NCBI GenBank assembly: GCA_018812705.1
Contig: JAHJCZ010000184.1
Location: forward strand, 1 to 58,102
Direction of reading: 5' to 3'
Origin: Candidatus Omnitrophota bacterium
GTDB taxonomy: Bacteria > Omnitrophota > Gorgyraeia > Zapsychrales > Zapsychraceae
DNA length: 58,102 nt
Part shown: piece by piece, positions 1 through 58,102 of the stretch
How positions within the stretch are numbered: the stretch's first letter is position 1
Layout: each line of letters begins with the position of its first letter
The notes under the pieces: model-generated
The model's database searches: none
Told to the model about the DNA's origin: nothing
The model's input: the letters and a program-made list of their open reading frames with translations, nothing else
Made by a program: the position numbers and the translations under genes

Positions 1-3000
1 AAACTATCTATTTCCTGCTGAAGCCTGTCGCTTAAGTCTCTTCCAACTAACATCCAAGCATGTCCCGCCTTAGCGATCTCTTCTAGCTTAACAGCATAAT
101 CATCGTCAAGCTCCACACCATAATCTTTAAGATCTTCCATATACTCTAAGAAGTACTTAAGCATGCTTAATCTTTCCCCAAAATATTCAAAAGACAACTT
201 TCTGGCTTCTTCTTCATCTAGCCCAAGAAGAATATGGCCTAGGATTTCATGCCTATCTATATCACTAACAAGATGTACTGCTTTCTTTTTGTTGACGACA
301 TTAAAATACCAAGTATGTATGAAGAGTATATTCTGAGTCCTGTTGTATGTCATGATATGCTTTTCAGTTGCTTTTACACTATCAGTAATAACGATACCAA
401 ATTGTGAAGGTAAGGAAGGAACTCCTCTTTCTTTCACATCATCTAAAACTGTATTAATTCTATGTTGCAAAGTGCTCTCTTGGCCTACAACAAAGCTGTC
501 TCCACTAACATATTGAATTCTATATTCTTGCCCCCGAAGACCATTAACCAAAACGGCTTTTGCCACTGTTCGCTGTCTGCCAGAACCAAGCACGACTTTC
601 ATCGGAACAGCTACTGGATATGCTTCTAAATCTGATCCAGGATCTTGCTTGTTGCCCTTGCCTGAATATTTTTTGCGCATTGTAAATGTTCTTTTAACTA
701 CTAGCAATGATCCTGCAAAAGCAAGCATAGCTAAAATAAATCCCACCCAATGATCAGCTGCTGACTTAACAGCACTTCTAATTGAGTGTTTGATCTCGAA
801 AACAACTATCTCTCGATCAATTGCATCAAGATGTACGTTCAATTCTCTAGCAATACTTTTATATGCTTGTGATATTTTATAAAATTCATCTGAATCTTGA
901 GATACGGTCAATACCTTTTCTTGTGCTACTGCATATTCAACAACCTTGTCTTCAATATATGGATTAACTGGATATCCTGTTGTTTTTAACACCTCCGTCA
1001 TTGGCTGATGCATATATCCCATTAATATGATTACACGCGTATTTGCATCCATAGCTAAATCCTCAATAACATCCTTTGCTAATTTTCTTCCACGAAGCTG
1101 ATTAATTGCCTTCCAGTCATAATCAACATGTCCATATATAACTCGATCTAACTCAGAAACCATATATTCTAAAGATGGCTTTTCTGATACAACATCAAAA
1201 CTATACCCTTCATTTTTCTTGCGAGCCAAGTAAGTCATCATTGCGCGGTAATAACCATTAAGCTCAAAGTCTAATCCATCAACATTTCCAGATACAAATG
1301 CCTGTAAAATCATGTCCATATTTTCCTGAGATTTACTATGCTGTGCTGTCAAAAATGGTTCAAAAGCAAATTGATATTCTTTACTGTCTACCAATTGTTT
1401 TGGGTTCATTCCTGGGAAATAAGCATTGAAACTTTCTACTGCATATCCTGGCATTAACAAATTGTTCTCAATATAAATTTTAAGTTTTTGACCGTTGTCT
1501 TTTGCCTCACCAAAAAGATTATCTAAGTGCTCGCTTACTAACTCAAAACACTCTTTTGAAATATGAATTGCATAAACTGGATGAATATCTATATTTTGAT
1601 TTTGTCTTTGTACTTCTGAAGCGTTTGTAGTTAGTGTATTAGTTGAACCTCCAGCAGACGACGGTGCAAATGCAATAACTGCCATGAAAAACAAGGCAAC
1701 AACAATTGTTGCCTTGAATAATTTATTTTTCAACAATCTTCGTATTAATAAAATACTCGTGATTACTGCTCCAACTCCTGCCAATACCGAAGCAACTACC
1801 CAGCCTGACATAACTACTGTTCCAGTTGCCCCTACAACAGCTAACACTTCAACAGCTGCGAACCCTGCATTATTACCTTTCGGCCCTAATGTCTTGCTTG
1901 GATCAGAAGACTCATTCTCACTGCGCTCTGAATCAGCCGCATCAATAGATTCTATTATCTTAAGGACTGCCTCACTGTACTTTCTGCTAATTTGCTTTGA
2001 TGACTCTTTCTGCCAATTAATACTTTTTCCTAAGTCAGCAGCTTCAGCTGCCTTTGTAAACCCTGTAAAATATTTCAACCATGCTACTTGTCTTGGATTT
2101 ACGCTTCCTGTAATGTCATACCCCTTCTTTCGCAGAGAAATACCTATAAGCGCGAACTCATCAAAGTTAGCAAGTTCTCCACACACACATACTGGAATAT
2201 TATAAATTTTTGCAATAGCACATGTTTGAGCTATCCAAACAATGACTTGTTTATTCAAAATATTACGCCCTACTTCAATTCCCATCTCCCTATCAGTATG
2301 AGTTATACAAGCTTCCGCATCATTACTTCCAAAATTAATAACTGCTAGCTTTCCAAAAACCTTTATCATCTCTGCTAGCTCATCTACAGCCTGAGGTGTC
2401 TCAACCATGATCCCCAAGTTTGCAAGGACCTCTTCCTTAAACTCAGCCCTAACTTCATCAACTATCTCTTTAATTCCTTTTGCTTCACTTTCAGTATTTA
2501 ACATTGGGAAAATAACCTGAACTTCGACCATGGGCTTTTCTGTTGTTTCCAAATACTGCTTCTCTGCTGAAGCTGTTGAACGAAGAGCAACTTTTAAACA
2601 CTCCCTGCCAATATCACTAAGCAAATACCATTGTGAACCTTCTAAAGTTGAAGTTGGGTCAACATTTGGCAGTTTAATATTTGCTTTATCTTTGTCTGGC
2701 ATTCTTATTGTCAGCTTTAACCTCTTACCATAAACTTCTGCGGTCTCCTGCAATTGCTTTATAATACCTAGGATCGATCCTGCAAAAAGATCTACTAATT
2801 TCCAGTCGCCATATCCTATTTTAAGAATTAAGAATTCAAATCTTAATAATCCAACTCCTTCAAGGTCTGCCTTTCCTATTAATTCTACGATTTTATTGCT
2901 ATCTGCAATATTATCCAGATTTACTGATATTGGTATTTTCGCGCCATCTTTTGTCTTACAAGTTGAAGTTACTTTTCTATGGGCTTTTTGCAGGAGTCCT

Positions 3001-6000
3001 TTTAGAATATTTTCAGAATCAGAATATTTAGCATACATTTCTTCATTAGGATTTATTATTAGCTCGCCGGCATGAGCATCAATAATCCCATATTCTCCTC
3101 CGAGTAAATTCTTGTAAGCAGAACCTTTTGCAATATTTCCATCTAAATACATTCCAGTAAGAGTTACCAGCCCTAAACTTCTTGCAAGAATTGAAGCATG
3201 TGCATTTTGTGTTCCAAGTTCAGAAACGATCGCTACTACATTATATTGATAAGCAATCTTTATAATTCTTAACGGCGTCATTTCATGCATAACTAGAATG
3301 ACATCTTTATTTTCAACACCGTTTTCTTGATTTAAATATTCTGAATTCTTAAGGCCTGAAAGTATTACCGGTAGATCTTTAGCAAATTCAACAATGGTCA
3401 TACCAATATTTGGGCTGGTCTTCATCATATCTTCACCCATTTTAAATATCTTGCTGATACCAATTTCTACAGCACCGATTGCACTTAAAATGCGGCCTTG
3501 TTCATCTTTTTCTCCAATTAATTCCTTAGATTTCTTTTCTAGTGAAGAATATAGCCCTTGTCCAATAGCAAAGCCTTGTGCTTCAGGGTTATCTTTTAAG
3601 CTTTCTTGAATTTTATCGAACAAAGCAACTTCTCGCCTATATACTAAAAGAAATTTGGCTTTTTCTTTTCTTATCAATCCTTCCAAATCATCAGTCTCTT
3701 CTAAATATCTATCTTGGTCACTTATAACAACATCCCCTTCTACAACGATCGTTCCTTTTGCAATTCTATGTTCATATGAAGCATTACCTCTATAAATAGC
3801 TTCCTTTCCGTCGCTTGAAATATCGTTAAGATCTGCTTTAAAAATGGCCTCTGTTCGTACTCCATATATCTCTGGATTATTAAGAACACTGATAGTCGCT
3901 TTTAATGTTTTAAGATTTTCGGATAAATACTCAATTGTCTTTAGGAGGGCTGTCGCTTCATCATTAATACCTTCTGCGTGGAATCTTTCATGTCCTTCAA
4001 AAACACCCTTAAGGAATTCTAGGTAAGTCTCTTTTTCTGTTGAACTTAATGCAGCGATTCTGTCTAATACAGACGTGTGGATAAATATCTTGTCTTCATC
4101 ATTATTGAATAGTACGATTTGTGCAGTTTCAAATGCAGTGATTGCACCCTTTGTGTTGCTAAGGTTATCTGTTACATACACAGGTGGAGCATTTGACAAG
4201 TATGTAACAGCTTCAAACAGATCTTTCAATGCCTGCAATTGTTGATCGTCTAAAATATTTTGGGCTGGATCAAGGTCAAATACATTACCAACTCTTAGAT
4301 CTATTGTTGTAGCACCATCTAAGACTTCTTCATTATCAGCATAGCTTATCGGTGTATACGGTGCGGCCATTGGCATATCGTATACTTGCGGTACCATATT
4401 CCAAGATCCGACATCATTTCCATTGCTATAAACACCTGAAGCTGCGATCTCAACAGTTTCAGTCTCATTGCTTGATCTCTCAACATCTGCAACAACAAAT
4501 GTTCCTGCAGCAGTTACATATTGACCATTGTCTGATGATACAGCATCAGCCTGTATTAATCTTTCTTTTTGATCTCTTGATTCCTTAGCACCATCAATGC
4601 ATTCTGTATTATCGGCTATTTTATTATTTAACCCAAACCCTGCTGTAATAATGAACTCAAATAATTCTATTGCTGCAAGGGCTAGAGAGAGAGCCTTTCT
4701 TCTTTTACTAGATGTAGTGCCCACATTCACAACCTTCACATCATTATTATTACGAGCCACTCCAGCCACGGAAAGAGTCGATAATTTTGAATGTGATGGT
4801 TGTGAATGCTTTGAACGGGCGAAATGTTTTCTTAATAGTGAAAACATTAATATTCCAGCTGCTGCAGCTGCGATAGTTGCAACAACCCAACCTAATCCGT
4901 TCATTGCTGAAATAACGACAATGCCAATACCTGCTATTGCTACAGGGACTTCGATCGCTGTAAATCCTTCCTGGCCTCTTTTTCTTGAAATTTGTTTGCT
5001 TTGTTTATTTACTGCGGCAGGAATAAGATTTTCATCGCCATTTGCTTCGCGTATCAATCTTGCAACCTTAGAATCAACTAAACTTAGAATATATTGTTTT
5101 GCTTCTCCTTCTCTTCTTGAATCAACTTCCTGAACATCGACCAATGAATGCTCATCAACAATTGTCAATCCTGGATTTTCAGCTTTAACAGCCTCAATTT
5201 CTTTTTCTGATAACCATCGTACAGGTCCATAATACTGCAATTGTTTTGATTTGAAGATGTCTATTCTGTCGCCTAAAGTCTCTTTACTCTGTTTGTAATT
5301 ATTTAGAAGAAGGACTTTCACAGCTGCGTCAAATCTTTGTCCAACCCATCTCGAGATCATTTGAGTCATTTGATGAATAGTCAGTCCAATATTTTCAGAT
5401 TCATAATTTGCGTTCAAGATCATTGTTGAATCTTTCAATACTGTTCCGATTCTCTTATCCATTAAAAGTGGTGCTGATGAAGTAACAAAACTTGAAATAC
5501 CTGTTAATTTAATCTGAGCTCCTTCGATAGCTTCCTGAACACCAGGAACATCTGCATCAACTCTTGCACCATAAAATTCAACATGAGTTATTGGTAATTG
5601 GCCGAAAGCAGGTGAATGAGAAATTTGATCCTGATCATATATTGTAACGCTGTACAATGAGTTCTCTTCTTGTCTAACTGTTTTAAGAGCCAAACCTTCA
5701 TAATGAGTAGGTGTTGGGCTGACATTGATTCCCATTGTTTCAAAATATTTTTTGTAAGCTGCGATAATTCCATAAGGATTGATCGTTTGATCTTCATAAC
5801 CTTTATATTGTAAGATCATGCCCTTCATCATAAGGTTCTTCATGCTTTGGCCGACTAGATCGATCTTTCCGTTTGTTACAAACTGAGCATCTATTACTGC
5901 AGCTGCTGCTAAGCGTGATCTTCTATATTCTTCGAATAAAGTCTTCTCACTTTCAAGGAATGTTACTCTTGCAAAAGCTTCTGTCAATACTGCTACCACA

Positions 6001-9000
6001 CTGTTGCCATAATATTCTGCAGTCGCTCTATCCTTGATACGCATGCTTTCAATTTTATCCATCCATCTTGGGATGATCCCTGAAACAGCTTTAGTTGGAT
6101 CTCCGTCTGCTGTAACCCTTAATCCCCACTCTTGTAAAAATCCACCTTTGATCAAGATAGTAGAGCCTCCAGCATCTTCCTGATTATGCAATGTCATTAC
6201 ACGCGGCATATCTCCAGATACTTTTCCAAGATCCTTTAGCTGTCTCCAAAGTTCTTGCAATACTGTCAATAATGCTTTACTGCTTCCACCACCGGCAAGA
6301 ATAACTGCCCAGTAAGGTTTTCCGTTAGAATAGATATCTTCTACCGTCCCTTTATTATTCTTAAGCGTCTCTAGGTTTGACAAGATTATCTTTAAATATG
6401 ATGTAAGATTTAAAACACCTTCAACATCATTAGCTTGTTTATAATAATCATTGAATGTTACAACTACATTATTCATTGAAGTGTAAGCAATTTTTGTTTC
6501 ATAAACAGCAGCTGCTATTCCTCTTACTGCAGCTATTATTGCTTTCTTAATATCTTCATTTGTTTCAGCAACAAGTAAATTCTCTAGTGCGTAAATAGCC
6601 TTAACTGCTGAATATCCAATTAAACCAAGTGTTTCTATTGCGATCATCTGCTGTCTTGCATCAGGCTTTGCAGCCATAATAATGATTGCATCTAGCGCTG
6701 CTTGTTTTCTTACCACGATGCTTGATTCATATGCTGCAACGATCTCCTGTGCATTTTCTGATACTTGAATCTGCTCCGCGAACACAACGCGATCTTGTTC
6801 ATAAACAACAGTTCCAATTGCCAAGCGTAGATTTGGAATTGGGTTTGCAGCTAATGCACCTGTCATAAGAATTGTATTTGCTGTTGCATCTGCTCTTTGA
6901 TCTTTTGCATCAAGCAGCTTTTCTAAGAAGAAAACAATTGTTGCTCTGAAAGCAGGATTCATTATTGGCATGATCCTGTCAGCTAGGACATATATTGCCT
7001 GCATGCGTACCCAGTAATAACCTGATACCTGTGTTTGATTATCAGCAATGATCTCTGTAAAGAATTCTGTAATACGGCGAAGCTGCAACACTGTGCTTCT
7101 GCGTGCAATGCGGCCTAAAGCTTCAACAATAAGGATCATTTTTTCTGTTTCAAGAATAACCTTTGGATGTGCAGCAACTATTCTTGCCTGAATTGCATCC
7201 ATTTCGCTAGCGATCTCTTCATTGTTTGCATCTTTTTCTAATTGTGCTCTTAACTCTTTATATCTAATATTGTCTTCTACATATTGTGTGTTGCTGCTGC
7301 TCGATACTCCTTCTCTGAACCATTTTATCAATGCTGCAATATCCTCTTTGCTATTTGCCTGAGCAATGTTTTCTTTAGAAGATCTGCGAAGAATGATATT
7401 TCTAATAACATTCTTATTTGTTGTACTTCTCCAAGCTTTAGTCTTATTGCTGTATATAGAAAGCTTTGTAATCGTGTCAATTGGGAATCCGCCTTTTAGA
7501 TCGTGCCATTCATTTTCATGACTATCAGACATAGGAGGTTGAGGAAGACGTCCTCTGACCTTTTGAACCAAATCATAATCTGCTTCAATAATAACTGGAA
7601 CGCTACCAGTAGCCTCTAAAGTGTGTGTATCCATAGCAAACTCTTTAGCAACAACAGGACTGAAGCTCCATGGAACATTATTTAATCCATCAGCCCATCC
7701 AAGCGCGATCTGCCCATTATCATCTCTATACAAATTCTTTCTTAATGACCAAAGCGTTACTCCTCTAAACATCTTTAACCCGCTAGTAGTCACAAGTTGT
7801 CTTGCTTTCTCTATATCTTTAAACTCACTAAGTAAACCGCGTGCATTGCGAACAATTGTTTGAATGTTTTCATCAGTAAATAATACCTGGCCTTTATTTG
7901 CTTTTGCAATTCTGATGATTTCTTGAATTGCAAAAGTCATTCCTTGCTCATTACCTGCGATCAATACAGGATGTAATTCAGATCTCATGTCTGCTGCAGT
8001 TTTATTTGCAACGATCAATGATCTGTTAAAACCTGCTTGCTGGTAACCTGGATAATCATTTCCATTTTCACCAACATTATCACCTGCATAAACCATATCT
8101 AAAGCAACTGGCTGCTCTTCTCTTACTACTGTTAACGCGTTTTGGTTATAATCATCAACTGAAATAAGCTTTCCGTATTTTGTAAAAACCTTCATGTCTG
8201 CTGCACCATTTCCAACAATGATCAAACCTTGTCTAACAAATGCATTGCGCTCGATCAAACGACCAACAAGCCTGCTCATATTGTTTCCACTGATAGCGGC
8301 ATAAACGCCACCCATATCGATCAATTCTTCTATTCCGTCTCTTGTAGGACTATTATGAATACCTTGAATACCTTTAACATCTGGACGTGGTGATGATAAT
8401 ACTGTTCCATCAACATCTGCGGCAAAAATAGTTCTTGTCTTTCTTACATCAATATACTCACCTGCACGATATCCCATAAGATCTAACAAATCACTTAAGC
8501 GTCTTTCTAAATAAGCGATCGCAAGAGATTTGTTAACACCTTTTCTATTAAACTCAAGCGTTGCTTTTCCAGCTTCTAAGACATCTACTGAATATCCAGC
8601 AAGTTGTGCCTCTAACCTCTCGCGAATAGTTCCACGGCTTAGGAAAAATCCTCTTACAGCTACTTGTGATGCTGATCCGTCTGCTTGAAGATTTCTTAAC
8701 TCGATGCGTATTTGTTCATTTTTTGTGCTTACATCATCAGAACCTTTTCTGATAAGTTCTCCGTCGCTAAGGATAGTTCTGTCATTTGCAAATGCCTCGG
8801 CTATTTCAACAAGGAAAGGATTCCTTCTGATCGCTTTAATGAATGCTTCATCACGAGCATCTTCTGAAGAAGCAACAGCATTGCTTATGTTTTTAAATAA
8901 TTCGCGAATTGCAGCTGCTGCTATTTTGACAATTTGATCAACTTGCTTTTTAGATAAGTATGTTGTTCCATTGTTTGCTGCAGGAGCAGCTTTAACTTCT

Positions 9001-12000
9001 CTTGATGCAGATGCTTCAGGAGCAGAGAACTCATCTCTCTGTCCGTGTAATGCTGGGTCATTTGCATATGTAACATTTTCCATTCCTTCTTGAGACATCT
9101 CTTCATCTAAGTACCATGCATTCTTTACATCCGTGAATGAGCTGTTTGACAATGCTGATCCTGTACTTAGAATGCCATTAATATCGCTATCTTTGTTCAA
9201 GTATTGTGTAATTGTTAAATCAATATAAACAGGGTCGTTGAAATCTTCAACAACTACAAATAAATGCGGGGTATATTTCTCAGCACCATCTTTTTTGATT
9301 TGTAATAAAACTCTTCTTACAGATACTTTATTATACCCAAGCGCTTCCAAAGCCTTGACCACAACTGCTGAAACAAAGTCACAATATCCGAATTTAGCTA
9401 CATCTAGTTTTTCTTTAATAACAATTCTATTAAACATCCAATTAACTGCTGCTTCGAAAGATGCTTCCTGTAAATATGCTTTACTAGAATTTACATCTTT
9501 CAAGATATTCTCTGCTGTTTCAACAACATTGATTTGCGCGGTATGAACTACTGCTGCTCTTTCCAATAATCTCTCTGCATCTTGTCTTTGAACACTGCTT
9601 GAAATCATAGAGCCCTCATTTCTGCGGAAAGAACCAACATATTGACCAGCAACATTATTGTTAGCCGCAAATAAAGCTTCTAGTTCTGACTTCTTCATCA
9701 TCATATATGGACGAACATTTGCATCAGTTTTGCTGTTTGCTAAAAATCCTTTTTCCCCATTGATCATTTGAATAATCATGACAATCGCAGCAATTGCTAC
9801 AGCAGCTGCGATACTGGTAACAACCCATCCTAATCCGCTCACGGCTGATATAATCACACTGCCAATGCCTGCAAGAGAAACTAAAACTTCTATGCTTGCA
9901 GATCCGCTGTTTGCATAATTGTTATTGCTTGCTCTATTATTGGTTGGCCTTGGATTTCCTTCGATCTTTCTTAGTGGTTTATAAACATCATATTCAATTT
10001 CAACATCGTCTTGAACTTCACCATTAGCATCAACTACTCTAACAACACCATTGATTATCACTGCATAATTACCATCTTCTAATCTTACCAATGCTCTTCC
10101 TTCATCATCTTCGTCATCCATTTCAACCAACTCATCATATTCAATGCTTACTGTATTTTCATTATTCAATGTATCAATAATTGTTGCATCAGTTAGAATA
10201 TCAATTTCTACCTTGCTTACTTGCTTTCCATTTAGAGAAAGCTCATTATCATCTTCCATAGTTGCTAATACTAAACGTGCTGCCAAAGGATTCTTGATCG
10301 ATCTAACAATTAATTTCTTTCCGGTCATTTTAGCTTTTTGTGCAAACCAATTGTTAACTGCCCTTGCAACTCCTCTTTCTCTGAAATATTTTTCGACTTC
10401 AATATCACTTAGTTCAACTGCATCATCAGTTTCTTTGAAATCTGTAAATCCTGCATATTGATTGCCAACATAAATATCAAAATATTCATTATCCCATTTC
10501 TGCTCTTTACTCTTGATCAACTTAACAGTAGCGCCATCTCTTGTTATTCCGACAACAATAACCGTGTTTGATTCGTTTTTCTCTGTTCTTCTTGGCTGTC
10601 TGTTTGATGTTTTAACTGCTGCACTTCCAGCTGCAACTGCATTTAATACTAGCGCTGGAACTAATTCTTCTTTTCTCATCATCATTACTGTTGTAGCTGC
10701 TGCTACTAACATAGCTGTGATCATCATCAATGTTTGAACTGAAACACCTGCAACGGCTACAGCTGTGATACCAGCTAATGTAAGAGGAACTTCAACAAGT
10801 GTGAAAGCTTCTCTTCTTCTGTCTGTTAATGGCCTTCTTGTTGTTTTTACTTCTTTGGAAGGATCGATGAATAATTTGTTTAATAGAACAACAATAATTG
10901 TTGCAAGAATTGCTGCGATAATGAATGGCGTTACCGTAGCTGGGGTGCTGATCTTAACACCTGTGTTGATCACAGTTGTTGCTTTTGGAATGATGTTGAT
11001 CAATGTGACTGGTGATTCTGCTCTTGCTTCATCATAAATACCTTTCACTACAAATCTTCCTCTTGCCCCGGCATCAACTAACATTGCATCTTCATAACCT
11101 TGTGCGCTTAAGAACTTAGCCATATCACTTAAAGGATTTCCGTATTGTCCGACAAATACATCATCTGTGAAGATCAATGACCATGTACCGTTTGAATGCT
11201 TTGCTAATACTGATTTTGTTCCAGCTCTTGAAGATGTAAGCACGTGTCTGCCATATGTTCCGTTCTCTAATACTATTGGTCCTGCCTGGAATGCGCTGTC
11301 AACTTTACCAGTTTCTGTTGCTCTCTTAATTTCATATCCTTGTGCCTTTGAAGCGCTCATGATCTGTGGATTACTTCCTTTATATTGAACGAATAATGCG
11401 CCAGCTGATCCGTTCGCTTTTTGCTTTCCTTGTGTCTCGCCATCTGCATTGTAAGCCTTAACTTCATTCCCGTTGATAACAGCTAAAGCTGCTGGTGTTT
11501 TATTACCATTCTTCTTAAAGAAGTAATTAGCATTAATAGCTGCAATTGAATCTGGTCTTACCACTGTATCTAATACCATGTCGTATTTTGCTGTATCGAA
11601 ATTAAGAACATGTACTAATTCACCATGTAACATTTTGTATCTTGCGAATGTCATGTTTTCGCCAACTTCTACTGATTCATATTGATTGTAAGCTTGACGT
11701 GCTGCTGTTTGAGCGTTGCCAAAGAATGCGGAAGGAGTAACTTTCTTGCTGCTGAAATCAAATCCTGCAAAAGCCAAAGCGCTAAAGATAACTACTGCTG
11801 TAATAATACCAGTTACTCTCTTAGCTTTTGAACTAACAACAACCTTTACATTGCTCTTTGCTAATATTGTTTTTCTTAATGATATCGCGATAAGAATTGC
11901 TGCCGCGCTAAGGCCTATAACAATTACAGTAAATACTGATAATTCTGAGAAGGTAATAGCTGCTAGTGTGATGCCTGCAACTGCAAGAGGTGCCTCGATT

Positions 12001-15000
12001 ATTGTGAATGCGCGTCTTGCTGATGTTCTTCTTGAATCTGCAGAATTTCTATTTGATAAGCCAAATACTTTTGAAGTTGATACTACTGCCGCCACGTTCT
12101 TAATATTTCGAACCACTCCAACCACGGATAGAGTCGATAATTGTGTAACTGAAGGCTGTGAATTATTTCTTTGGGCTAAAAATCTTCTGAATGCCGCTAT
12201 AGATAAGATCCCTAATCCACCTGCGATCAAACTTGCAACTGCAGGTGTTAGGTCTGAAATGTTTTGTGCTAAGAAGCTTGCTGTCATAACCGCTAAACCA
12301 ACAACTGTGATCACAACAGGAACTTCGACTAATGTGTATCCGCTGTTGTTTCCTGCTTTTCCTCTATTATCGCTATCGTTACCTTCATCCTTTGAGTTAA
12401 GTCTCTTGATAGTTGCTCTGATATTTGCTTCCCAATCTAATGCGTCATTTCCTTCTTTATAAGCGTTTGCGAAAAGTTCAGCTGATTCGTTTAATAAGCT
12501 TAATGCTTTTGCTTGATCACCAGTATCATATGAAGCTGCAGCGACTACATAAGCAATAGCTGCTTTCATATAATTGATACTTGGAACATCTTGCTCTAAT
12601 ACATTTGTGTTTGCCTGGAAGAAGTTTTCAACTGTTTCTGCAGTTATGATAACATCTTCTTTTCTTCCTGCTTCATAATAGCTATCCATAAGTGAAGCAA
12701 ATACCATCAATCTATCCATTGCAGACATATGTGTTCTTTCAGAAGAAGCTAAGTGTTCCAACATCTCTACTGCTCTTGCAACTTCGCCATTATTTTTCTT
12801 AACTTCAGCAAGTCTTTCATAATTTCTGTAAGCTTCAGTTAATGCTGTAAGAATTTCAATAACATCATTTGCGTTCACTGCAGGGAATACTGCTTGTGGC
12901 AATACTGCTAAAGCTTCTTCATAACAGCAAATAGCTTCTTCAAAATCATTATTTCCAACTAATACATCTCCGATATCTTTCATGTTTGCTGCCTGAACAA
13001 CTTGACGTTTTGTTTGTGTATCGCTAAGGATCGCTTCAAAAGCTTTTCTTTGTCTTGCATCAGCAATGTCAGTTAGCTTGTTTCTTAATGCTTGGATCTT
13101 CTCTTTATATTGTCTGCTTAACATTTTGTTGATTTCAGATAATTCAGCTCCTGCATTCTCAACAGTTAGAGCATCTCTTCTAGCATTTTCAAGAACGGCA
13201 ATAGCTTCTCTGCTCTTATCGTCTTCTAATAATTCAATCGCTGTATCGAGAGCAACGTTAATATCTTCAATTGTTTTGGCCTTTGATGGGAATACTTCGA
13301 TGATAGTTACTCCGTTATAAGAAGATGCGCCAAACGCTCTTGTTTTTCTTGCTACTGCTCTTGCTCTTCTTGCATAATCAATTTCTACTATTCTGCTTGA
13401 TGTGTTGCCCGCATCCACAACCTTCACATCCTTATTATTACGAGCCACTCCAGCCACGGAAAGAGTCGATAATTGTGAAGATGATGGTTGTGAATGTTTT
13501 TTACGGGCAATATATTTTCTGATCAAAGCTAACATTAAGATTCCAGCTGCTGCAGCTGCGACAACTGTAGAAACCCAACCTGATCCGCTAACCTGCGCGA
13601 ACATAGCTAACATAATTGGCCACGCATGAGAATGTAATGTAGTGCTGTTATTGTTTTCTGGTTGATTTACTCTTGCTTTGTTGCTTACTTTTTGATTTTT
13701 AAGGGAAACTCTTATCTTTGAATATTTGGCAGGAACTATGAGGTTGATACTTGCGAATTCTATATTGATTTCAGAAGCAGGAACAACTCCCACTACTATT
13801 CCTTCAGCATTTATAGCCTTAACCAAGAGCGCACCTTCTTGAATAGCTTTTAATATTTTTGCTCTAACAGCATCTTGTAGTCCTTCAGGAACTTCACTTG
13901 CTAATAATGTAACTTTAATAACATTATTTTCTACTTCTCCAATAAGAGCATCTTTTGAAATATTCTCAATAACTTCCTTTACAATCGCCTGAACTTTTTT
14001 ATAATCATTTTTTCCTTCAGAAAACGCATTGAATATATGCATTACATTCCAACCTAATACGCGTAGGATATTCTCGAAAGCTACTTTAAACTTAACAACT
14101 AATACAACCGTTAATACCGCATTAATGATTGCAATTATGCCTACTGGGATAAAAGTGATCGGAGCAAATATAATACTTAACATTAATAAAGCCAACGTTC
14201 TAAACCATATTTTAACAGCCTGTCTTTGACCAAACATTTCTGACAATCGCCATCCAGATAATGTTTGTTTACTGCTATCATTCTTATCAGTCTCAACATA
14301 AGTATCAAATACATCTGTACCTGTTAAGAACGCTATAACCGCTAATAAATATGGGACTACAAACAACATACCAATTAATGTTGAGAACATCGTTGAGAAT
14401 ATAAATCCAGCAATTGCAACGATTGCAACGATACCAGAAACAGGTATTCCTTTTGTTGTAGCGTTATTCATATGGTGAATAATACCTGCAATAACAAAGC
14501 TAATAGCTGATCCAATAAGAGCATATTTAACTATCCAGCCAAGACCTGCTGCAACAAAACCGGTACCCACAAGAAGCCCGCCAACAAGACCTAATCCTGC
14601 AAGAATAATGCCGATTCTAAAGAATCTGTTCTTTACAGTACCATCTAACTGCGCTCTAAATTTGAAAAGCCTATTGCTTTGGAAACGTGTGCGACGATCT
14701 TGAACACCAAATACTGGCTGTTTTAATGTAGGAACAAACGAGAACATTTCATTAGCTACCTTAACACTTGCCTCCGCAAAACCGATGATCATTGATACTG
14801 TATAAGGGAAGGCTTGAACTGTATCTTTAGCAAATCTCCCTATTGCCTTCCAGAAATTACCGGTAATAAACATATGGCGCAAGAAGTTGAATAAACTGAC
14901 TGAATTCATCATAATAACGGTTAATGAAAGGAAGGCGATAACTGGTTTAAGGTAAGCAAATCCACTGAATGGTTGCAAGAATGGCAATGCAACTAATATA

Positions 15001-18000
15001 ACAACCGCAAGCATTGATGATAAATAATGGAAAGCGTTTTGTAATATGTTCAACTTGAAATCTGTCCCAACAAATTTATTTGTAAAGGTCTCAAACATAG
15101 CTGTCGGTAAAATTAACTGTGCTACGTTAAATGTATAACGGCTTTCTGTTCCAAAAACTGATTCCGAATGTAGAGATGGACGTGACCATTCCCAAACAAA
15201 GTATCCTTCACAAGTTGCTGTTGCTTCAGGTTCCATATTTTTCTGGATCATAAAAGCACCAGAGTCTTCTACAGGAGTCATTAATAATGTATCCCCAGAT
15301 GCTGGGTTAACAATACCTTTACCATAGAACAATGTTAGATCTTGGTATCCTAGCTGTGATACTTGCGTAAATGTTTGTTGCATCATTTTATACATGCGTC
15401 GTCCTGGGAAGGCATAACTACTTGCACCCCAGATCAAGAAGGCCGGGTTCATAACAACATATTCTGGGTTACGTCCCATATAAGCAGCCGTATTAAGTCT
15501 GTATGGGTTAGATCCTGGCATAACACGAACAAGCGCATCCTGGTTAGCAGATAAACTTCCTGTTAACCAAATATTCACCCCAATTCCACCATTCTTGAAT
15601 GTTGAAAGAATCTCATCACCTGCGTAAATAGGAACATGCGCATTGGCTTTATGTTGTGTATTAAATACATTCGCAAAGTCGACCATTTCTTTAAACTCTT
15701 TAGCTTTGGTGTAATTCTCCTCCATAAAGTGTTCATATTCTGCTTTTCTGAACCCAAGAATAACATTAGCGAATTCATCTGTTGACTCGAATAAGAAACG
15801 ATCCTGACTTTCGCCATCAACAGCAACAACGCGATTATGAGCTTCAGCTTCTCCATAAAGATTAACTATAAAGTGATAGAAAGCACGATGAACAGAAATA
15901 GGATCACCTTGTTGTGCAGCTTCAGATTCTTTTCTTCCTTGATTAAATAGTTTTGCTACTGGCAGAACACCCCACTGAAGTGTTTTTGATTCACCCTTTT
16001 CTACAACATTAACAAGTGTTGTTAATCGACGAATTAAACTGTTTTGTGGATTCGCATTTTGCCACATAGTAGTCATCTGCAACATTTGGAAGATCTTAAG
16101 TTCAGCCATCTTCTTATAACCCTTTTTGCCATCTTTGGATTCAAATTCATCAACAAAAACTTGCATAAGTCTTGCTTTTTCCACGTCAGAAGCTCTTACG
16201 GCAGCAATCTCTTGATCTGTCCAATTATCCTTAGCCAATTGAACCGAACCAAACTGCTCATCAGCTAACTGAACCGCATGACGATAATCAATATTTCCAT
16301 CGTTATAAGCTGCTGCCAAATGAACAGCAATAACATCTTTAGCAAAACCATCTAATACAGCCATATTAGCTGCATCAAGTTCATCAAGAACAATACCAAA
16401 TATTTCAGCTGCATCTGCATAAGCTTGAGGATATTTCTTTAATATCTCAAGGAAGTTTGTTCTTTCGTTAGCACCTTCAAGCTCTTTAACAAGAACATTA
16501 TGCCCACGCTTTCTAAGTTCCTTAAGAGCATTATTGTATTCATCTGGATGAGTACGCACTAAATAACCGAACATATTTGCTTCAATTGTACCATGCTCGC
16601 TAGCTATTTTTAGAGCATAATTAACAACTGTCTTAAGAATAAAGTTTGCTAAGAATAATCTCTTTTCAAGAGCTTCCTCATCAATTGCATATTTGTTAGC
16701 TATCGGTTCTAAAGGACCTTCCCATTTAACACTTTTACCATCTTTACTCATTACAGCTTTCAACTCTTTTAAAATATCATTTCGCTTGTTTTCTGGCCCT
16801 AATAAGATTCCCTTAAACACTGCCTCACCTAAATTACTAATAGTAAATTGTGGCATATTTTTCATTGCTGTTATTATATCGCCAAGCAGTGCAAATCTTT
16901 CAAACCAATTAAGTCTTTTTTCTTTTAGATGACCATTAATGATTCTCTCTAACTCTCGTATTTCCTTTCTCTTAATCATCAACGACATTGTTCCTGGACG
17001 AATATACTCTTCTAATTGATGACCAACGATTTCATTGTATGACTGAACATGTGTTCCCATTTGTTTATGGCGTGCATATGTATCCATTGGAGTTCGGCGG
17101 TATGCGGGTGACATCATGTTCATATAAAGATATTCGCGTGCCTGTTCACCTTTGAATTCTGGGAATTTTTTACCTAAGTATGCTGCTTTAATTAGAGCTT
17201 CGACGTCCTCATCAGAAATACGATATAAACGCTTTAGGTCTGTTGCAAGACTTCTAATATGCTCAACAAACAAAACGTTATTAGGCATAATGTAACCATA
17301 ATTATTTTCAGCTGAACCGTATTCTGCGTTAAGAGCTCTAAAATAACGTGCGTCAGATGCAAATATACGGAAAATAGCTGCGAACATATTAGCTCTACCA
17401 CGTGCACGCCTGCTCCAAAGATTATTGCGATAGTTATAATATGCCTTACCAGCACGGGCAACTTGAACTAATGACAAGACACTAACTACTGATAACATAA
17501 GTAACAATACAACCGTATTGATTGCACCAGCACTTAACCATACAACTGAATAATATTTTCCAAAAACTAACCATGACATACCACCCATCAAAGATGAGAA
17601 TGCACTTCCAACAAACGCCCATAATGCTTTCTCACCTCTAACTGGCATATATGCAAATAGCAATGGCAGTGTTATTAAGGACATCGTTGCCAAGAATACA
17701 AATAAACCAACTTGAGCCGTTAAATATATAGAAACTACAGAAGATGCAATACCTACCAACATTAATCCATATACTAACGCACGTACCTTAGCAGATCGAA
17801 TTCCCAAGATATCTTCCAAAGTAGTTTGATACTTGCGTCCGAATCGATTATTCTCAAATTTGGCTAAATAGCCTACGAACAATCCGAATATTCTGTAGCG
17901 CATGAAACTCCACCAGCCCTTGCTCTCAGCTTGTTTCTTTTCCGCTTTATTAGCATATGGTGAACGTTCCCCAACGATCTTTTGGAAATGATCTCTAAAC

Positions 18001-20945
18001 GGCCTAAATAAAGGCAGTAATATATTGTTGAAATATTTATCAAATGTATTTCCTTGTTTTACATTAGCTCTATAATTTTTACCGTAATCCTGCATATCTT
18101 TCCAGGTAGCTTTTGCTTTTGCAGCAAGTGCTTCAGCAATTTCTTCTGTATTTGTAGCTTTTGAATTCTCTAGTGCCGCTGCTGCTTGCTTAAGCATTTC
18201 TTCATACTCTTTAAAGATGCTTTTGTTGTATGAAAGGTCCGTCTCTGAACTTACTTCTTCTTTGCGCATACGTTTAGTTAAGTCAGCAAAGACAAGTGTC
18301 ATATTTTCATCATACAGTGTCTCACTTAAGCGTAAGTTAGGTTGTTGCTCATTCTTACCTGTTGTACCATCAACCTTACCTGTTGTAATATAGATATAAG
18401 CACCATCTCCACCATCATTTAACTGCTTAATATTATTCATGAAGAATACATAGCGCCAGTATAAACGATTATTCTTGATCAATTTATGATATTCAGCTAT
18501 CTGATGGCTGCCGTAAACATTATCGCGGTTATGTATCAAATATGCCGTTAAAAATAATACTTGTGTAAAAATAAGGCCATCCCCACCTAAAGATATGCCG
18601 TCTGTTTGTTCTTTAGGTGCTTGTAAATATTTAAAGACTACATACTCTTCATAAGTTACTGCTTCAGATGTTTTAAGAGCCGCATTTGGATTAACAATCA
18701 ATTTCATATCTTTTGGTTCAACTACACCATTCTTTATTGTTGGAAGACGTGATGGTCTTAAAGATACATAGAACATTAATTCAGCAATAACTTGCTGATA
18801 GAATAATTTTTTCAGCTCATCAAACTTGATTCCAAAACCATGCTTATTAAGAACTGTGTCGATCATAGGTGTTAATACATTGTCACGTACATAACCGATA
18901 ACATCTTGTTTAAAGTTTGTAAATCCTGCCAATTTCTCTGCAAACCTGTCATCTTTTGCAAGTAATTCAACGGCAAGGCGTGCTTCCGGTGTCATTAATT
19001 TCCTTAATAATACGTGATCTTTAGTGGCGCGTTGTTCAACTTCACGTTCAAGCTGTTTCTTCAATTCATTTAGAACAACCGCTTGTAAGATACTTGCATC
19101 ATCTTCAGCAGTCTTCTTATCTTTTGGTTCATATTTCTTTCTATCTCTTAAATACTTAGTACGTACCTTTACAGCCACTGTTACAAGGCGTTTTAATAGG
19201 TCTTCAGCCTCTTTATCTTTAAGGTCAACATTGTCAAGATAATAAACTATAGCAACCGCATCAATAACACCTGCTTTTGCCATTTTCTCAATTTGCTCTA
19301 ATAATGGTCTACTTGTATCGAATGTTACTTTTTTATTATCATAGTAATTTTCATGAACTTCTTTGAATGTTAATTTTCCACTTTCATAAGCTGCAACAAT
19401 GCTATCAATTTCTTGTTTATCAAAACCCTCTTCTCTTAATCTGTCTCTAACAACCCTACCATCACGTCGTTTTTCTAATTTCTCTAAAGAGCCATCCGTT
19501 TTTACACCTTTGACCAATTGATCTAAAGCTGCATCGAATGTTTTGTATTCCGCTGGTGTCAATTTACGCTCTTTGCGTTGAACATCTAAGAATATTCTTA
19601 ATACAGCAACCTTCATCTCAAATGAATAAGCACGTTTAAAGTTGGAGAAACTATCACGATCACGCTCTTCAAGTTTAAATTGTACTAAAATATCTTTAAA
19701 TAAATGTTCAACTTCCGGACGTTTACCTGCTACAAAAATGCCACCTTGTGCTTCACGGGATACTAGCTTCCTAGCTAAACGTTTAGCTTCAGGTTTGCTT
19801 ATTCCTTTTTGTTTTTCAAGAACACGGGCAATATCTTTTGTTATTCCTCGATTAGCATTAACAGAACCAAAAGTGCGATTCCATAAACGACTTATCATGC
19901 GATAAACTTTTGAGTCTTTGATGCTTGAGATAAGAGTTAATAACATTACAAGCGTTAGAGCAAGTCCACCTGCAACCCACCATATGTAAGAACGAACCTG
20001 ATCTTCATAAACATTTTTACTTAAGTGTTCTGGAACCTTACCATCCCAAAGCTGTGTTCCTTCTGTTGCAAGAATTTCAAATATTTGACTCTTTGATATA
20101 TCGCTGTCTCCTGTCCATAAGCCAACTGCTATTGTATCTACTATACGTCCTGGGAATGAGTTTCTAAATAGGTCTGTCCAGGTTTGCTCATAAACATCCA
20201 AGTAAACTCTTTCGCCTTCAATCTTGTTGATCAATCGATCATAAAATTTAAATAATTTATTTTCACTTTCTCTCTGTGCTTTAACGACTGCTACAAGCCT
20301 ACCGTTTTTAACATCAAAGATTCTCACATTAACTTCGTTAATATTGTTTGAATCTGGAACATCTCTTATAACTCTGTATTGACCAAATGAAGTGTTAACA
20401 ACTGTCATTTCATAATGGCTATATAATTGTTCGTCTAAATTAGACATATCTGCTCTTGGATCTAGGATCTTTGCTACTGCATCTCTTTTATGCTTGAAGA
20501 TACCGCCAATTTTAGTATTGTATATAGGCATATTTGAACGAGAATATGAAATACTATGATAATCTGCATTAATTTCTCGAACTACACCAGTTTTCACATT
20601 ATAGGCAATAAAGATATCCTTGTTAATAAATGCCTGTTCGCTACGATACTCAAATGGAACTTTATAAAGATATTCGTCACCATGTTGCATTAAGAATTCT
20701 GTTCGGCGAGTAACCATATTTAACGTTTTGTTAATAACTGTTTCCCCTGTTGTCGTACCTAACATAACTGATGCAGGTGCTTCATTTGCGCCTACTGAAG
20801 TACCGTCAACCGCGACATTGTCATCAAATTGCATGAACCTTATTACCTTACCTTCAACAACAACATAATCCCTTGCTAATGGATCGTTGTATCCTAAATA
20901 TCGGACAACACCCATATCAACAAATTTACTATCATCAGTATACTT
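1..20945 (-). CDS. Segment E of giant protein (>=6,980 aa, runs off left edge; absent from ORF track)
   Basis: Frame opens after TGA 20946-20948 (KYTDDSKFVDMGVVRYLG...) and is the same frame at the left edge (...AWMLVGRDLSDRLQQEIDS). No stop was found in manual translation, and the track lists no long closed ORF here, as expected if the frame has no stop inside the window. Confidence 0.93.
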
Positions 20946-23900
20946 TCACTGCTGTTTCCTGTCCAGATGCCTCTTCTGATCTCAACTAATTGTTTTTGAC
21001 TTTCATATCCAATATTACCTTGTGGCATTTCCGCACTTAATTTGGCATCTTCAGGCATTCCAAGCTTATTCTCTAATTGAGCAGGAGTTAGTCTAGTTAT
21101 TGAAGTAACCTTAAATATCTTGTTCAAACCTGAGAACTCTATAGCCTTCCTAGCACTTGCACCTTCGAAATCGATACCTATTGTAATATCAGGACTAAAT
21201 CTCTTTTCAGAAGATATAACAACAAATTTACGTGCTTGTGAATCTTGTTTAATGCGAACAACATAATCAATTACACCATTTGCTCTGATTGTTTCTGATA
21301 AAATAAATTTAAGATTATCAATTCTTTCTTTTGCTTCTTCAGCCGTCATTCCACCCATTTTTAATTCATTAGCAATATTTGCAAGCCCTAAATTAATTGC
21401 TTCTTCAACATGATCCGTTAGCACAGTTCCGTTATCTTGTGCCATTAAATATTGTCTTAATTCTGATGCAGTATCTATGGCCCTTGTATTTCTTGAAGAA
21501 TCTTTCAAAGTTATAATTATATATGGAGTAGCATTAACACCGCGAGTTGCAACATATGTCTCAACTGCATTATTATCAGGATCAACCTTTCCTTCTTTTG
21601 CTAATCTAAATTCAACATAGAAATACTTTCTGTTTTCATTAGAACTTTCTGTTGCCCTTGTTATTGTTGCTTTTACCACGTTTGATTTAGCATCAATGAT
21701 AAACCCTTTCAAGAATTCGCGGTCTTCTAAGCGGTTCAACATGATAGATAGATAGTCAACTTGACCAGCTAAGTATCTGATTACTTCCTTAGTGCTTTGT
21801 AGATTTTTTGCTGCCATAATAGCGTCTATTTGAGCCCATACATTACTATCTTTTTCTTCGTATGCTTTTAATACTCCTACAGGCACTAAACGTAATTTTC
21901 TAATTTGAGTCATCATACTTTCAATGCTATCCTGAGCTATAATTGAAGCTCTATCTTTTGCAAAATCTTTAACCAACATTGCATCAATAACATCAACTCT
22001 TGCCCTGTCAATACCTTCTTCTAGAGATACTTCAATAAACTCTGAATTTGTACGATGATGTTGCTCTACTCCTAGAACTGATCTTGCTTGTTCAAGTGTA
22101 GTAACTATCTTCTCAAGGCCTTGCTCTTCAGTAACAACTATCCTTCTACCCTTAGCTTTCAATGCAGCTATTATTCCACTGCCAACCATATCTAATTCAG
22201 GTCTTCTTACAGCGAAACCAACTGCATTGTCTTCAGTAAGCTCATTAATTATTTCGCCTTGAGCATCTACCAATTTATACTCACTGTTATAGTAGTAAAC
22301 AGGTCTTCTACTTAATTGTCTTTCTCCGTAGAATGCTTTACCTTCTATTCTTTTGCCATTTGTTAAAGTTTCAGGTGCTGCATATAATTCTATTTGCATA
22401 TAACCCTTAACTTCATTAATACCAACAGCTGATACTAATGCATGTGTTGCAAAATCTCTTCTTTCGATAATTCTGACTTCAACATTCCTGTCAGCTTCAG
22501 ATTCTGTCATGCCATCTCTAAATGCTATTTTACCAAGCTCTTGAGTCATCGCTTTAACCGCACCTCTTGAGCCATCTGCATTTAGATCATAAACTATACC
22601 CAAAAGAACTGGCTTTGCCATTGTTCCATGAACACCTACTGCAATATCCTCTAATACTTCCACTTCAGATTCATCTAATGACAATGTTTCAACATCTAAA
22701 GCCACTCTTTCTATAATCTGATAAACGCCATTTACCTTTTTGATCTTAAGAACTTCAGAAATATTCTCATATTCATCTGATGTAATATCACTAAGGGCTT
22801 TGTATGTTGGCACATCAAATCTCTTTGCTTTACCCTGATAGATAACTAAATATTTTGATGCAACATCAGCTTCAGAAGCAATATGTGAATCTGGAAGTTT
22901 TAAAGCTACTCGCTGCTTACCTGTTACATCAGTAAATGTTGTTACACCTGAAATTCCATCAGCTTTGATTGATAGAATAGGCATTGAATTTCTACCCTTG
23001 CTTGGATCTTTTGCCCAATCAAGATCTGATAATTCCAAGAACCTGTTAAATTCTTCAGTTGGATTTGTTAGTTCTTCAGATGTTACATATAATGTTCCAT
23101 TTGCAGTTGGTACTGCGTAGTATGGTGCTGTTAGGCTCTTGAAGATCGCCCATTTTGCTGCATCAGTTTTTCCTGCGAAGTCAACTACGTAGCTCTTTGG
23201 TTGTCCTGGATATACAATAACCGGTGTCTTTAATGGCTGGTATAGCTCTCCACTTTTAGCTGCATTTGGCTGATCTCTATATGAAAGAGTCTCAAGCTCA
23301 TCGCCTTCGGGAATTCCATTAAGATTTGCGTCTCTGAAGTAGATGTATTTTCCTGATCTTAGATCCTTTCTGTGTTCTAGCTCGATGTGTCCTGTTGGTG
23401 CCGATAATGCTTCTGGTGTTCTTGCAATGTACCCTCTTAACTGAGCTACTGTTAAGTATGTTGCCAATTTCTTATTAACAGTGTCTAATCTGTTGATCTT
23501 TGCTACTATCTTGTTAGCTGGTAATGCTGCTGATTGCTGAACAGCTGCTTGTCTTTGCTTTAACTCTTCTTGTATTTTCTTTTCATCTGCTTGTCTTCTG
23601 TTTAGTTCTTCTTGTATTTTCTTTTCTGCTTCTATTTTTCTCTTTAATGCTGCGATCTTTTCTTCAATTTCTTGCTTTGTTAAGTTGTTATTTGCGGCGA
23701 CTTCTATAGCCCATGCTGTCTTTAATACATCAGATGCTTTTCTGTTTCCGATTCCGTACCATTCTTCATTTGATATTCCGTCGCCTAAGATGCTTAATGC
23801 TGATCCCTTTGTATCATGTGCGTTTGGATTACCAGCCTTGAACAACTCATCTTGCCATGTCATGAATGTAACGCCCATGAACATATCTTTGTATGCTGGC

Positions 23901-58102: not shown

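Follow-up and report, generated by a model that had tools for sequence, protein, structure and literature searches.

The five frames of one strand

Several large proteins have been deposited from adjoining stretches of a single Omnitrophota contig, which raises the question as to whether they are the products of separate genes or pieces of one very large gene. The window analysed here is one whole contig of 58,102 nt (C117 of genome G000), and its minus strand is tiled end to end by five open frames, A to E, with both outer ends open (Table 1), in line with the uninterrupted one-strand coding that an earlier note made from the sequence alone had described. The frames are separated by one in-frame TAA and three -1 frameshifts, and at the three shifts the neighbouring frames are both open over 88, 55 and 49 nt. 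The other two minus-strand frames contain 1374 and 1885 stops per ~19,367 codons, or about 1 in 10-14, a density that excludes chance as the source of the open frames. With three read-supported bases added (see below) the coding frame runs for 19,367 codons with a single stop (the remaining two frames have 1554 and 2090), in agreement with the earlier estimate of a fragment of more than 19,000 aa once four lesions are mended. None of the five plus-strand ORFs (170-296 aa) had a Pfam match. At least four proteins are deposited from the window (2194, 6470, 2897 and 6971 aa), and the fifth frame corresponds to 833 aa.

Table 1 Features of the 58,102-nt window, in window coordinates
Feature	Position	Strand	Basis or remark
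Frame A	58100-51510	-	2197 codons; 5' end open
Frame B	51506-32094	-	6471 codons
Frame C	32181-29632	-	850 codons
Frame D	29686-20897	-	2930 codons
Frame E	20945-1	-	6981 codons; 3' end open
Break 1, in-frame TAA	51507..51509	-	Glu in near-identical NCBI protein P0022
Break 2, -1 frameshift inside M23-like domain	32094..32181	-	Additional T after 32149 (+ strand) in read-derived contigs
Break 3, -1 frameshift	29632..29686	-	Additional T after 29660 in read-derived contigs
Break 4, -1 frameshift	20897..20945	-	Additional A after 20939 in read-derived contigs
CheR-type SAM methyltransferase domain	49503..49697	-	Pfam PF01739, 36.3 bits vs cut-off 27
Tandem repeat, 273 nt x 2.5 (91-aa units)	39913..40605	-	Protein-level repeats at B aa 3590-3903
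SecA-like motor core (NBD1, preprotein cross-linking domain, NBD2), without scaffold and wing	37200..38627	-	Pfam and PDB matches
Eight hydrophobic (membrane-type) segments, directly after the motor	35465..36590	-	Hydropathy scan
Amidase_3 (N-acetylmuramoyl-L-alanine amidase) domain	33117..33686	-	Pfam PF01520, 31 bits vs 27
Block collinear with aa 18,068-23,796 of the 82,151-aa frame of G040	14304..31971	-	21-38% identity, one frame
Two-helix membrane module, six copies	within 1698..12368	-	First helix opens with G/A-F/Y-x-x-x-E motif
Copies of the module	12174-12368, 11844-12038, 10641-10835, 9738-9932, 4800-4994, 1698-1892	-	Hydropathy and tiled comparison
NAGPA (phosphodiester glycosidase) domain	11040..11546	-	Pfam PF09992, 36.4 bits vs 25
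CofD-like (2-phospho-L-lactate transferase family) domain	5271..5888	-	Pfam PF01933, 40.2 bits vs 30
PEP-utilising enzyme mobile domain and PEP-binding domain	2076..3308	-	PF00391, 33.4 bits; PF02896, 60.9 bits

The host was placed using EF-Tu as a marker. The best named match to the EF-Tu of this genome is 96% identical and is labelled 'Omnitrophica WOR_2 bacterium', and among the 16 listed matches labelled with an organism or source 14 belong to Omnitrophica or Omnitrophota (including Ca. Aceula lacicola), the remaining 2 being 'hydrothermal vent metagenome', which backs the placement in Omnitrophota. A cluster mate of contig C152 is likewise named Candidatus Omnitrophica.

The interruptions in public reads and near-identical records

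Read-derived (Logan) contigs from four public runs (X2-X5) were compared with the window over positions 20000-39999, a span that takes in the three frameshifts and has the TAA site outside it. At each frameshift the extra base was present at full depth in all three of the runs that covered the site, these being X2, X3 and X5 at breaks 2 and 4 (X4 gave no cover) and X2, X3 and X4 at break 3 (X5 gave none). Runs X4 and X5 belong to other studies; X2 and X3 may be source samples and hence not independent, and rare variants get dropped from contigs built from reads. No RNA data set was listed as containing the stretch.

NCBI proteins of other assemblies tile the window, with P0022 covering 58100-48339, P0030 51197-32094, P0033 30843-15894 and P0026 15821-3. 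P0022 came from the protein cluster of ORF A. When aligned with the window it runs gapless over 3254 aa with 2 differences (99.94% identical), and a GAA-type Glu replaces the TAA. Breaks 3 and 4 are both spanned by P0033, and break 4 also by P0034. P0030, a separate NCBI record, ends with the out-of-frame tail of frame B, placing the 32149 deletion in at least two deposited records, and since P0030 carries it too this deletion could be a real minority variant.

The mending of the TAA draws on one other record and on a weak similarity in relatives. An exact DNA scan of metagenome contigs around this site, with the codon left free, gave 0 matches, and protein searches across it, with X at the stop, returned no near-identical protein among those of similar length and the window's own ORF A alone among longer ones. 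Overall the proposal of four lesions within one gene is borne out, in that the three frameshifts are absent in 3/3 covering runs each and the TAA is absent in a 99.9%-identical protein.

Relatives read through the four places

Consistent splitting of orthologs at these four positions, which the earlier note had set against a single gene, was looked for and the relatives are not split there. They read through all four places within open frames of up to 82,151 aa, the giant frames measuring 82,151, 44,966, 44,145 and 17,674 aa. The region of break 1 is open in 3/3 relatives' loci (G035, G003 and G014), where similarity is weak. The domain at break 2 is continuous in relatives, with Pfam Peptidase_M23 scoring 89.1 bits in G034 and staying below cut-off in G017 (25.0 bits) and G009 (19.7 bits). 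At break 3 the counterparts of C and D adjoin without a change of frame in five of eight relatives' loci, and at break 4 those of D and E do so in two of four.

The 82,151-aa frame lies at 721874-475422 of contig 1 of G040, a genome of the same order. Outside the collinear block of ~5,700 aa it has no similarity to the window at E<=1e-8. The frame contains no match to the strict GFxxxE pattern. Relatives of a 400-aa conserved piece were also sought in genome contigs and none was confirmed.

Continuation beyond the contig

That the true length exceeds the window had been predicted and is now demonstrated by P0022, which over its initial 1386 aa is 100% identical to C66, another contig of this genome, and joins C66 to the window's 5' end, adding 1,395 codons to give ~20,760 codons contiguous. 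Exact contig-end overlaps of at least 12 nt were not found (C66 and the window share 6 nt), and a search for cluster mates of 10 other frames found three, none of them bridging two contigs.

Open frames totalling ~221 kb are present on other contigs of the genome, and neither the G040 frame nor contig-end overlaps nor cluster mates linked them to the window. Other giant-gene contigs are also broken: C21 contains a stop within its frame, C194 is interrupted by two gaps and frames overlap towards the end of C180. On C180, which is not linked to the window gene, the end of the giant frame is followed by PhoB, PhoR, Na-Pi and PhoU genes, not by PilZ. Contig C185 was considered as the N-terminus of the gene and rejected, as it encodes a SpvB/TcdB-midN/FG-GAP/RHS-type protein, another large gene.

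Domain content and the SecA-like motor

Scanning 47 overlapping 600-aa tiles against Pfam at curated cut-offs gave 10 families above cut-off, at 7 places, and 13 more names below it (Glyco_hydro_2_C among them), with 31 of the 47 tiles empty at E<=0.01. The earlier count of more than 25 recognisable domains is thus not sustained at these cut-offs; the mixture of domain types it described, namely cytosolic-type enzymes, a SecA translocase motor and cell-wall hydrolases, was found. Neither glycosyl transferase nor NUDIX matches were seen in the Pfam tiles of the fragment. The Amidase_3 region had no sequence match in PDB, and the predicted fold of the conserved block in C (9-row alignment) reached a mean pLDDT of 50.6 and gave no Foldseek match in PDB at E<=0.001. 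Repeats were identified by tiled comparison, self-BLAST of whole ORFs having returned diagonals only. Two short motifs, R-S-E-x-R (0 observed vs 0.25 expected) and D-G-G (3 vs 4.4), were not enriched.

The SecA-like motor matches SecA_DEAD (52.9 bits), SecA_PP_bind (36.6 bits) and P-loop_SecA (27.3 bits), has the GKT and DE motifs and aligns with PDB SecA chains at E about 1e-17, the alignment ending at residue 573 of 822. Its NBD1, preprotein cross-linking domain and NBD2 align with those of canonical SecA (PDB 3jux, 3din, 1m6n); unlike canonical SecA, it is embedded in a giant protein and membrane helices replace the helical scaffold, wing and C-terminal domains. The window tiles gave no match to Pfam SecA_SW. 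By the crude measure of a 19-aa Kyte-Doolittle mean of >=1.7, there are ~41 hydrophobic segments in total, 12 in B and 29 in E, with none in A, C or D.

A repeated two-helix module with a prepilin-like motif

The two-helix modules lie between enzyme domains, separating them in the last third of the protein. The motif that opens the first helix is the best-conserved part of 13 aligned copies, with E at +5 in all 13, F or Y at +1 in 12 and G at -1 in 11; in a module copy from another genus the motif glutamate is lost. It resembles the prepilin N-terminus (class III signal, TIGR02532 IV_pilin_GFxxxE) in its residues G/A at -1, F/Y at +1 and E at +5 and in the basic stretch that precedes a hydrophobic helix. 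Unlike that N-terminus it occurs inside the protein and more than once, and a second membrane helix comes after it.

A whole-genome scan with TIGR02532 passed one of the six window copies (12279-12344, 18.8 bits vs 16.3) and left two copies on other giant frames below cut-off, and direct scans of seven segments gave no match to TIGR02532 or Pfam N_methyl. Against a profile built from the 18 pilin N-termini of this genome the copies scored <=6.4 bits, compared with 4.1 for a reversed decoy. With a profile of the module itself, the next-best matches were small pilin-size ORFs, in 59 of 61 genomes across the order. Two such ORFs of G000 overlap TIGR02532 matches, and the genome has a Peptidase_A24 gene.

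One reading, which we regard as rather unlikely, is that the modules start at genuine prepilin-type sites, at which a prepilin peptidase would cut the giant polyprotein into separate membrane-anchored enzymes; the GFxxxE-type motif could simply be a membrane-insertion feature. The cleavage points of giant proteins are stated as not known in a preprint (West-Roberts 2023, 10.1101/2023.11.21.568195) and, were this reading true, prepilin-type sites would supply those missing points. The repeated motif is the point that could matter more, as it offers a concrete hypothesis of how giant proteins might be cut.

One broken gene or several

We consider it highly likely that the contig is an internal piece of one giant gene, from an uncultured Omnitrophota, for a membrane-anchored multi-enzyme protein of the Archaeovorin-like kind, and that the four breaks belong to the deposited record and not to the natural population. 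Judged from sequence comparison, they would be faults or rare variants of the database record rather than real gene boundaries, comprising three single-base deletions, one of them common to another record, and one G-to-T change. A gene decaying in this strain, in which at least some of the four lesions are real and yield truncated products or none, would fit with the deposition of the record's proteins as separate entries, with the break at 32149 being common to P0030 and with the damage to the giant-gene contigs C21, C194 and C180. We nevertheless judge decay improbable, as every read-derived contig set that covers the three frameshifts lacks them at full depth, possible source runs included, breaks 1, 3 and 4 are read through in near-identical NCBI proteins and, the breaks aside, the window differs from these proteins at very few residues.

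The annotation itself implies five separate, translationally coupled genes in an operon, and predicted internal start codons do lie near each break (ATG 51503, 3 nt after the TAA; TTG 32130, or alternatively 32072; ATG 29587; ATG 20915). Such an arrangement is very improbable given that break 2 cuts the M23-like domain in two, that the relatives' homology crosses all four places without a change of frame, with orthologues unsplit, and that the read-derived contigs restore a single frame. All three shifts being in the -1 direction is what programmed recoding would give, by -1 ribosomal frameshifting at each of them combined with readthrough at the TAA, but the same DNA elsewhere has one more base per site and a GAA-type Glu for the TAA, and no slippery heptamer was seen at the shift sites, leaving recoding barely credible.

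If the contig is a piece of one giant gene, the deposited proteins would be pieces of one polypeptide that runs upstream into C66 and downstream past the contig. The domain families, together with two preprints, suggest that this protein would sit in the cytoplasmic membrane, where its built-in SecA-like ATPase, with a multi-helix membrane domain behind it, may help to thread its own outer parts across. The Amidase_3, M23-like and NAGPA parts may be directed at the wall of host or prey cells, and the cytosolic-type enzymes (CheR-like, CofD-like and PEP-utilising) would be kept at the membrane by the two-helix anchors.

Comparison with known giant-gene systems

As the earlier note had anticipated, the size and style of the gene are not new and its kind is already in print, the two preprints giving giant Omnitrophota genes of up to 85,804 aa (West-Roberts 2023, bioRxiv 10.1101/2023.11.21.568195) and proteins of up to 147,155 aa (Nielsen & Lui 2026, bioRxiv 10.64898/2026.06.07.730766). 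The window serves rather as a worked example of how giant genes are undercounted in fragmented genomes, with single-base faults that lack public-read support splitting one predicted polypeptide into several deposited proteins and the polypeptide continuing on another contig of the genome. [quoted passage not shown]

The Archaeovorin type is represented in West-Roberts 2023 (10.1101/2023.11.21.568195) by a cited 39,678-aa protein of Velamenicoccus archaeovorus LiM. As set out there, it requires a single ORF of more than 30,000 aa (90 kb), contains glycosyl transferase, methyltransferase, glycosyl hydrolase, peptidase and NUDIX domains, and has an N-terminal C39 or S8 peptidase with secretion-system genes upstream and PilZ genes downstream. 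Going by the preprint's main text, the window gene shares with this type an Omnitrophota host, many membrane segments, mostly unannotated sequence and fragmentation in short-read genomes, as well as a divergent SecA module of DEAD and preprotein-binding domains that has neither scaffold nor wing, and a mixture of methyltransferase, hydrolase and peptidase-type domains, represented here by CheR-type, Amidase_3, NAGPA and M23-like domains. It differs in being a fragment only (~20,760 aa with C66), in showing no glycosyl transferase or NUDIX match in the Pfam tiles of that fragment, and in carrying CofD-like and PEP-utilising domains not named in that main text, in which 'CofD' and 'amidase' have 0 occurrences (supplements excluded). 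The type's C39/S8 peptidase at the N-terminus, and the secretion and PilZ genes that flank it, would fall beyond the window.

The class of 'multi-enzyme metabolic cluster' described by Nielsen & Lui 2026 offers a second comparison. The window copy differs from that class in coming from a fragmented genome and in having its frame broken four times in the deposit; as far as the preprint characterises the class, the two are alike in having many Pfam families with none dominant, in membrane anchoring, predicted for the window copy, and in having few sequence-level relatives.

Open frames across the contig

The source genome, G000, comprises 195 contigs (2.69 Mb), and the window is one complete contig of it. 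ORF analysis showed the minus strand of the window to be tiled without gaps by five open frames, A to E (Table), in agreement with the earlier note, which had described the whole window as one strand of uninterrupted coding. Stops number 1374 and 1885 in the two remaining frames of the minus strand, so the openness of the coding frame cannot be a product of chance, and no Pfam match was found in the five plus-strand ORFs of the window (170-296 aa). Frames A and B share a reading frame and are separated solely by the TAA at 51509-51507 (break 1). Each of the later passages (B/C, C/D and D/E; breaks 2 to 4) is a -1 shift, with both frames open over 88, 55 and 49 nt respectively.

Table. Coordinates of features in the window and in other giant-gene contigs of G000
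Feature	Position	Strand	Remarks
Frame A	58100-51510	minus	2197 codons; open at contig end
Frame B	51506-32094	minus	6471 codons
Frame C	32181-29632	minus	850 codons
Frame D	29686-20897	minus	2930 codons
Frame E	20945-1	minus	6981 codons; open at other contig end
Inserted A	behind 20939	plus	in runs X2, X3, X5; X4 without cover
Inserted T	behind 29660	plus	in runs X2, X3, X4; X5 without cover
Inserted T	behind 32149	plus	in runs X2, X3, X5; X4 without cover
Tandem repeat	39913-40605		273 nt, 2.5 copies, 85% matches
Antisense ORF	39703-40593		296 aa
Two-helix module copies	12174-12368, 11844-12038, 10641-10835, 9738-9932, 4800-4994, 1698-1892	minus
Contig C21, in-frame stop	17268-17270
Contig C194, breaks	near 12374-13148 and 22590-22758		reverse-strand coordinates
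Contig C180, end of giant frame			64-nt overlap with next ORF

The breaks in reads, database records and relatives

The four breaks are a property of the deposited record, not of the population, and are not gene boundaries. Logan contigs of four public sequencing runs were aligned to window positions 20000-39999; X4 and X5 derive from separate studies, and X2 and X3 may be the source samples. Compared with the window, these contigs carry exactly three insertions that fall inside the zones of frame overlap, all at full contig depth. With these three bases the window reads as one frame of 19,367 codons with the TAA as its only stop, which bears out the proposal that repairing four lesions would yield a single frame. 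At 39606 the window has A versus G in all four runs, a synonymous difference.

Near-identical NCBI proteins cross the same positions. P0022 (4647 aa), a member of the cluster of ORF A, aligns without gaps to 58100-48339 at 99.94% identity and differs from the window at two residues, having Glu at the stop and Trp where the window encodes Gly (55148). P0033 (4984 aa) runs through breaks 3 and 4, and P0034 through break 4. By contrast, P0030 (6368 aa) closes on the out-of-frame tail seen in frame B, so that at least two deposited records carry the deletion at 32149; it may be a consensus error common to both or a genuine minority variant.

Orthologs consistently split at the same four positions would have pointed to separate genes, and the relatives show no such consistent split. 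Break 2 falls within a small domain whose first half lies in frame B and second half in frame C, and which is unbroken in the translated loci of relatives; Pfam identifies it as Peptidase_M23 in the related genome G034 (89.1 bits), with scores below cut-off in G017 and G009 (25.0 and 19.7 bits). Five of eight loci at break 3 have C-like and D-like regions adjoining in one frame; in two more the regions share a frame without adjoining, and the eighth lacks a D-like match. At break 4 the D-like and E-like parts adjoin in one frame in two of four loci; for the remaining two the match was confined to the E-like part, within open frames of 82,151 and 7,511 aa. At break 1, the 100 aa ahead of the match are free of stops in each of the three relatives that match the beginning of B, and in G035 weak similarity extends through the stop position. 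The exception is G010, where the frame homologous to the end of B has stops some 57 aa before the M23-like domain (locus L013, G010:C24 58000-77999, about 9090-9200), with similarity resuming directly after the last of them; this may be a lesion of its own near break 2, a boundary or a true start.

Continuation of the gene and other giant frames

The gene runs on into contig C66 of G000, as expected from the earlier claim that its true length exceeds the window. C66 is open over its full length (1395 codons) and has 6 nt in common with the end of the window, and residues 1-1386 of P0022 match it at 100% identity. P0022 thus bridges the two contigs to give about 20,760 contiguous codons, with both outer ends of the joined frame still open. 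Elsewhere in G000 about 221 kb of long open frames touch contig ends, including those of 11 further contigs with one strand open throughout (C21, C56, C139, C194, C28, C152, C26, C82, C153, C173 and C66); links sought between these and the window gave none besides C66.

Other giant-gene contigs of G000 also carry single stops or frame changes, and those in C21, C194 and C180 may be errors in the record comparable to the breaks of the window. On C180 (16001-24000, locus L060) the giant frame terminates in a low-molecular-weight phosphotyrosine phosphatase domain, followed by the overlapping ORF with a LOG/'lysine decarboxylase' domain and then by PhoB-like, PhoR-like, Na/Pi cotransporter and PhoU genes. 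The end of this frame is not followed by PilZ genes. A 2584-aa ORF running off the end of C185 (2-7753, minus strand) was considered as part of the giant multi-enzyme gene and rejected, its SpvB, TcdB_toxin_midN, FG-GAP and RHS-repeat domains marking a separate large Rhs/Tc-like gene.

Domain content

Pfam was searched with 47 overlapping 600-aa tiles at curated cut-offs. Ten families passed, at seven places (CheR; SecA_DEAD, SecA_PP_bind and P-loop_SecA; Amidase_3; NAGPA; CofD; PEP-utilizers; and PEP-utilizers_C, overlapped by an HpcH_HpaI match), and 31 of the 47 tiles had no Pfam match at E<=0.01. Thirteen further names, including GGDEF, Glyco_hydro_2_C, TPR, a GNAT and HEAT, fell below cut-off and several are probably noise. 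The more than 25 recognisable domains previously claimed are thus the sole error in a reading otherwise correct in substance.

Alignment of the SecA-like part with solved SecA chains begins at the nucleotide-binding GKT motif and stops at the end of the second nucleotide-binding domain; eight hydrophobic segments follow. A crude hydropathy scan found 41 hydrophobic segments, of which frame E has 29 and frame B 12, the other three frames having none, and helix counts between domains gave no consistent topology. At protein level the tandem repeat gives 91-aa units set between membrane segments. It falls on the GC-richest part of the window, where an antisense ORF with no Pfam match overlaps it.

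A repeated prepilin-like module

The last third of the protein contains six copies of a two-helix module, with further copies on other giant frames in G000 (C152, 2512-2706) and in contigs C19, C38 and C69 of G001. The first helix of each has a basic or Asn-rich stretch followed by G/A, F/Y, three residues and E, and among 13 aligned copies E is the sole invariant column (glycine 11/13, F/Y 12/13). The pattern G/A-F/Y-x-x-x-E is the signature of prepilin N-termini. The motif also occurs in pilins of G000 itself, where position -1 is G or A, and the genome has a Peptidase_A24 gene. One copy in the window scores above the NCBIfam TIGR02532 cut-off (18.8 vs 16.3 bits), and the next-best matches to the module profile are small pilin-size ORFs, in 59 of 61 genomes.

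Other results speak against a prepilin-like reading. Direct scans of seven segments gave no TIGR02532 or N_methyl match, only GspI in one segment (E=0.052), and a profile of 18 G000 pilin N-termini scored module copies at 6.4 bits or less, a reversed decoy reaching 4.1. The giant frame of G040 lacks the strict pattern, and Asn replaces the glutamate in a copy from G050. The modules may be cutting or insertion sites of the giant protein. The accessible literature on prepilins in Omnitrophota, or on prepilin peptidases acting on polyproteins, yielded nothing relevant.

Relatives and comparison with described giant proteins

The attribution to Omnitrophota was upheld by EF-Tu, which matches 'Omnitrophica WOR_2 bacterium' at 96% identity; among the matches listed with an organism or source name 14 of 16 were Omnitrophica/Omnitrophota, including Ca. 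Aceula lacicola, and the other two 'hydrothermal vent metagenome'. Relatives of the giant gene are patchily spread. Counting G000 itself, frame C matched in 11 of 41 genomes, the first 600 aa of E in 5 of 41, the first 600 aa of B in 4 of 41 and the CofD region in 3 of 61. Matching open frames reach 82,151 aa (G040), 44,966 (G013), 44,145 (G034) and 17,674 (G035); that of G040 is collinear with window 31971-14304 and has no match at E<=1e-8 elsewhere in the giant-gene contigs of G000. G001, of the same genus, has no match to frame C or to the starts of E or B and does carry hairpin modules, the open frames that contain them being 3826, 5508 and 2352 aa long; giant genes therefore differ strongly within the genus, or the assembly is incomplete.

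What is seen directly is one frame, its Pfam domain set and many membrane-type segments. Following the accessible text of two preprints on giant Omnitrophota proteins (West-Roberts 2023, bioRxiv 10.1101/2023.11.21.568195; Nielsen & Lui 2026, bioRxiv 10.64898/2026.06.07.730766), the protein would sit in the cytoplasmic membrane, where its built-in SecA-like motor may aid export of its own outer parts; the amidase, M23-like and NAGPA parts would act on the wall of a host or prey, and the cytosolic-type enzymes would be tethered at the membrane. The accessible main text of both preprints is silent on motifs of the prepilin or class III type within giant proteins. The gene is a further member of this already described kind, and specific to the present work are the assignment of the breaks to the record, the continuation into C66 and a prepilin-like module possibly marking cutting points.
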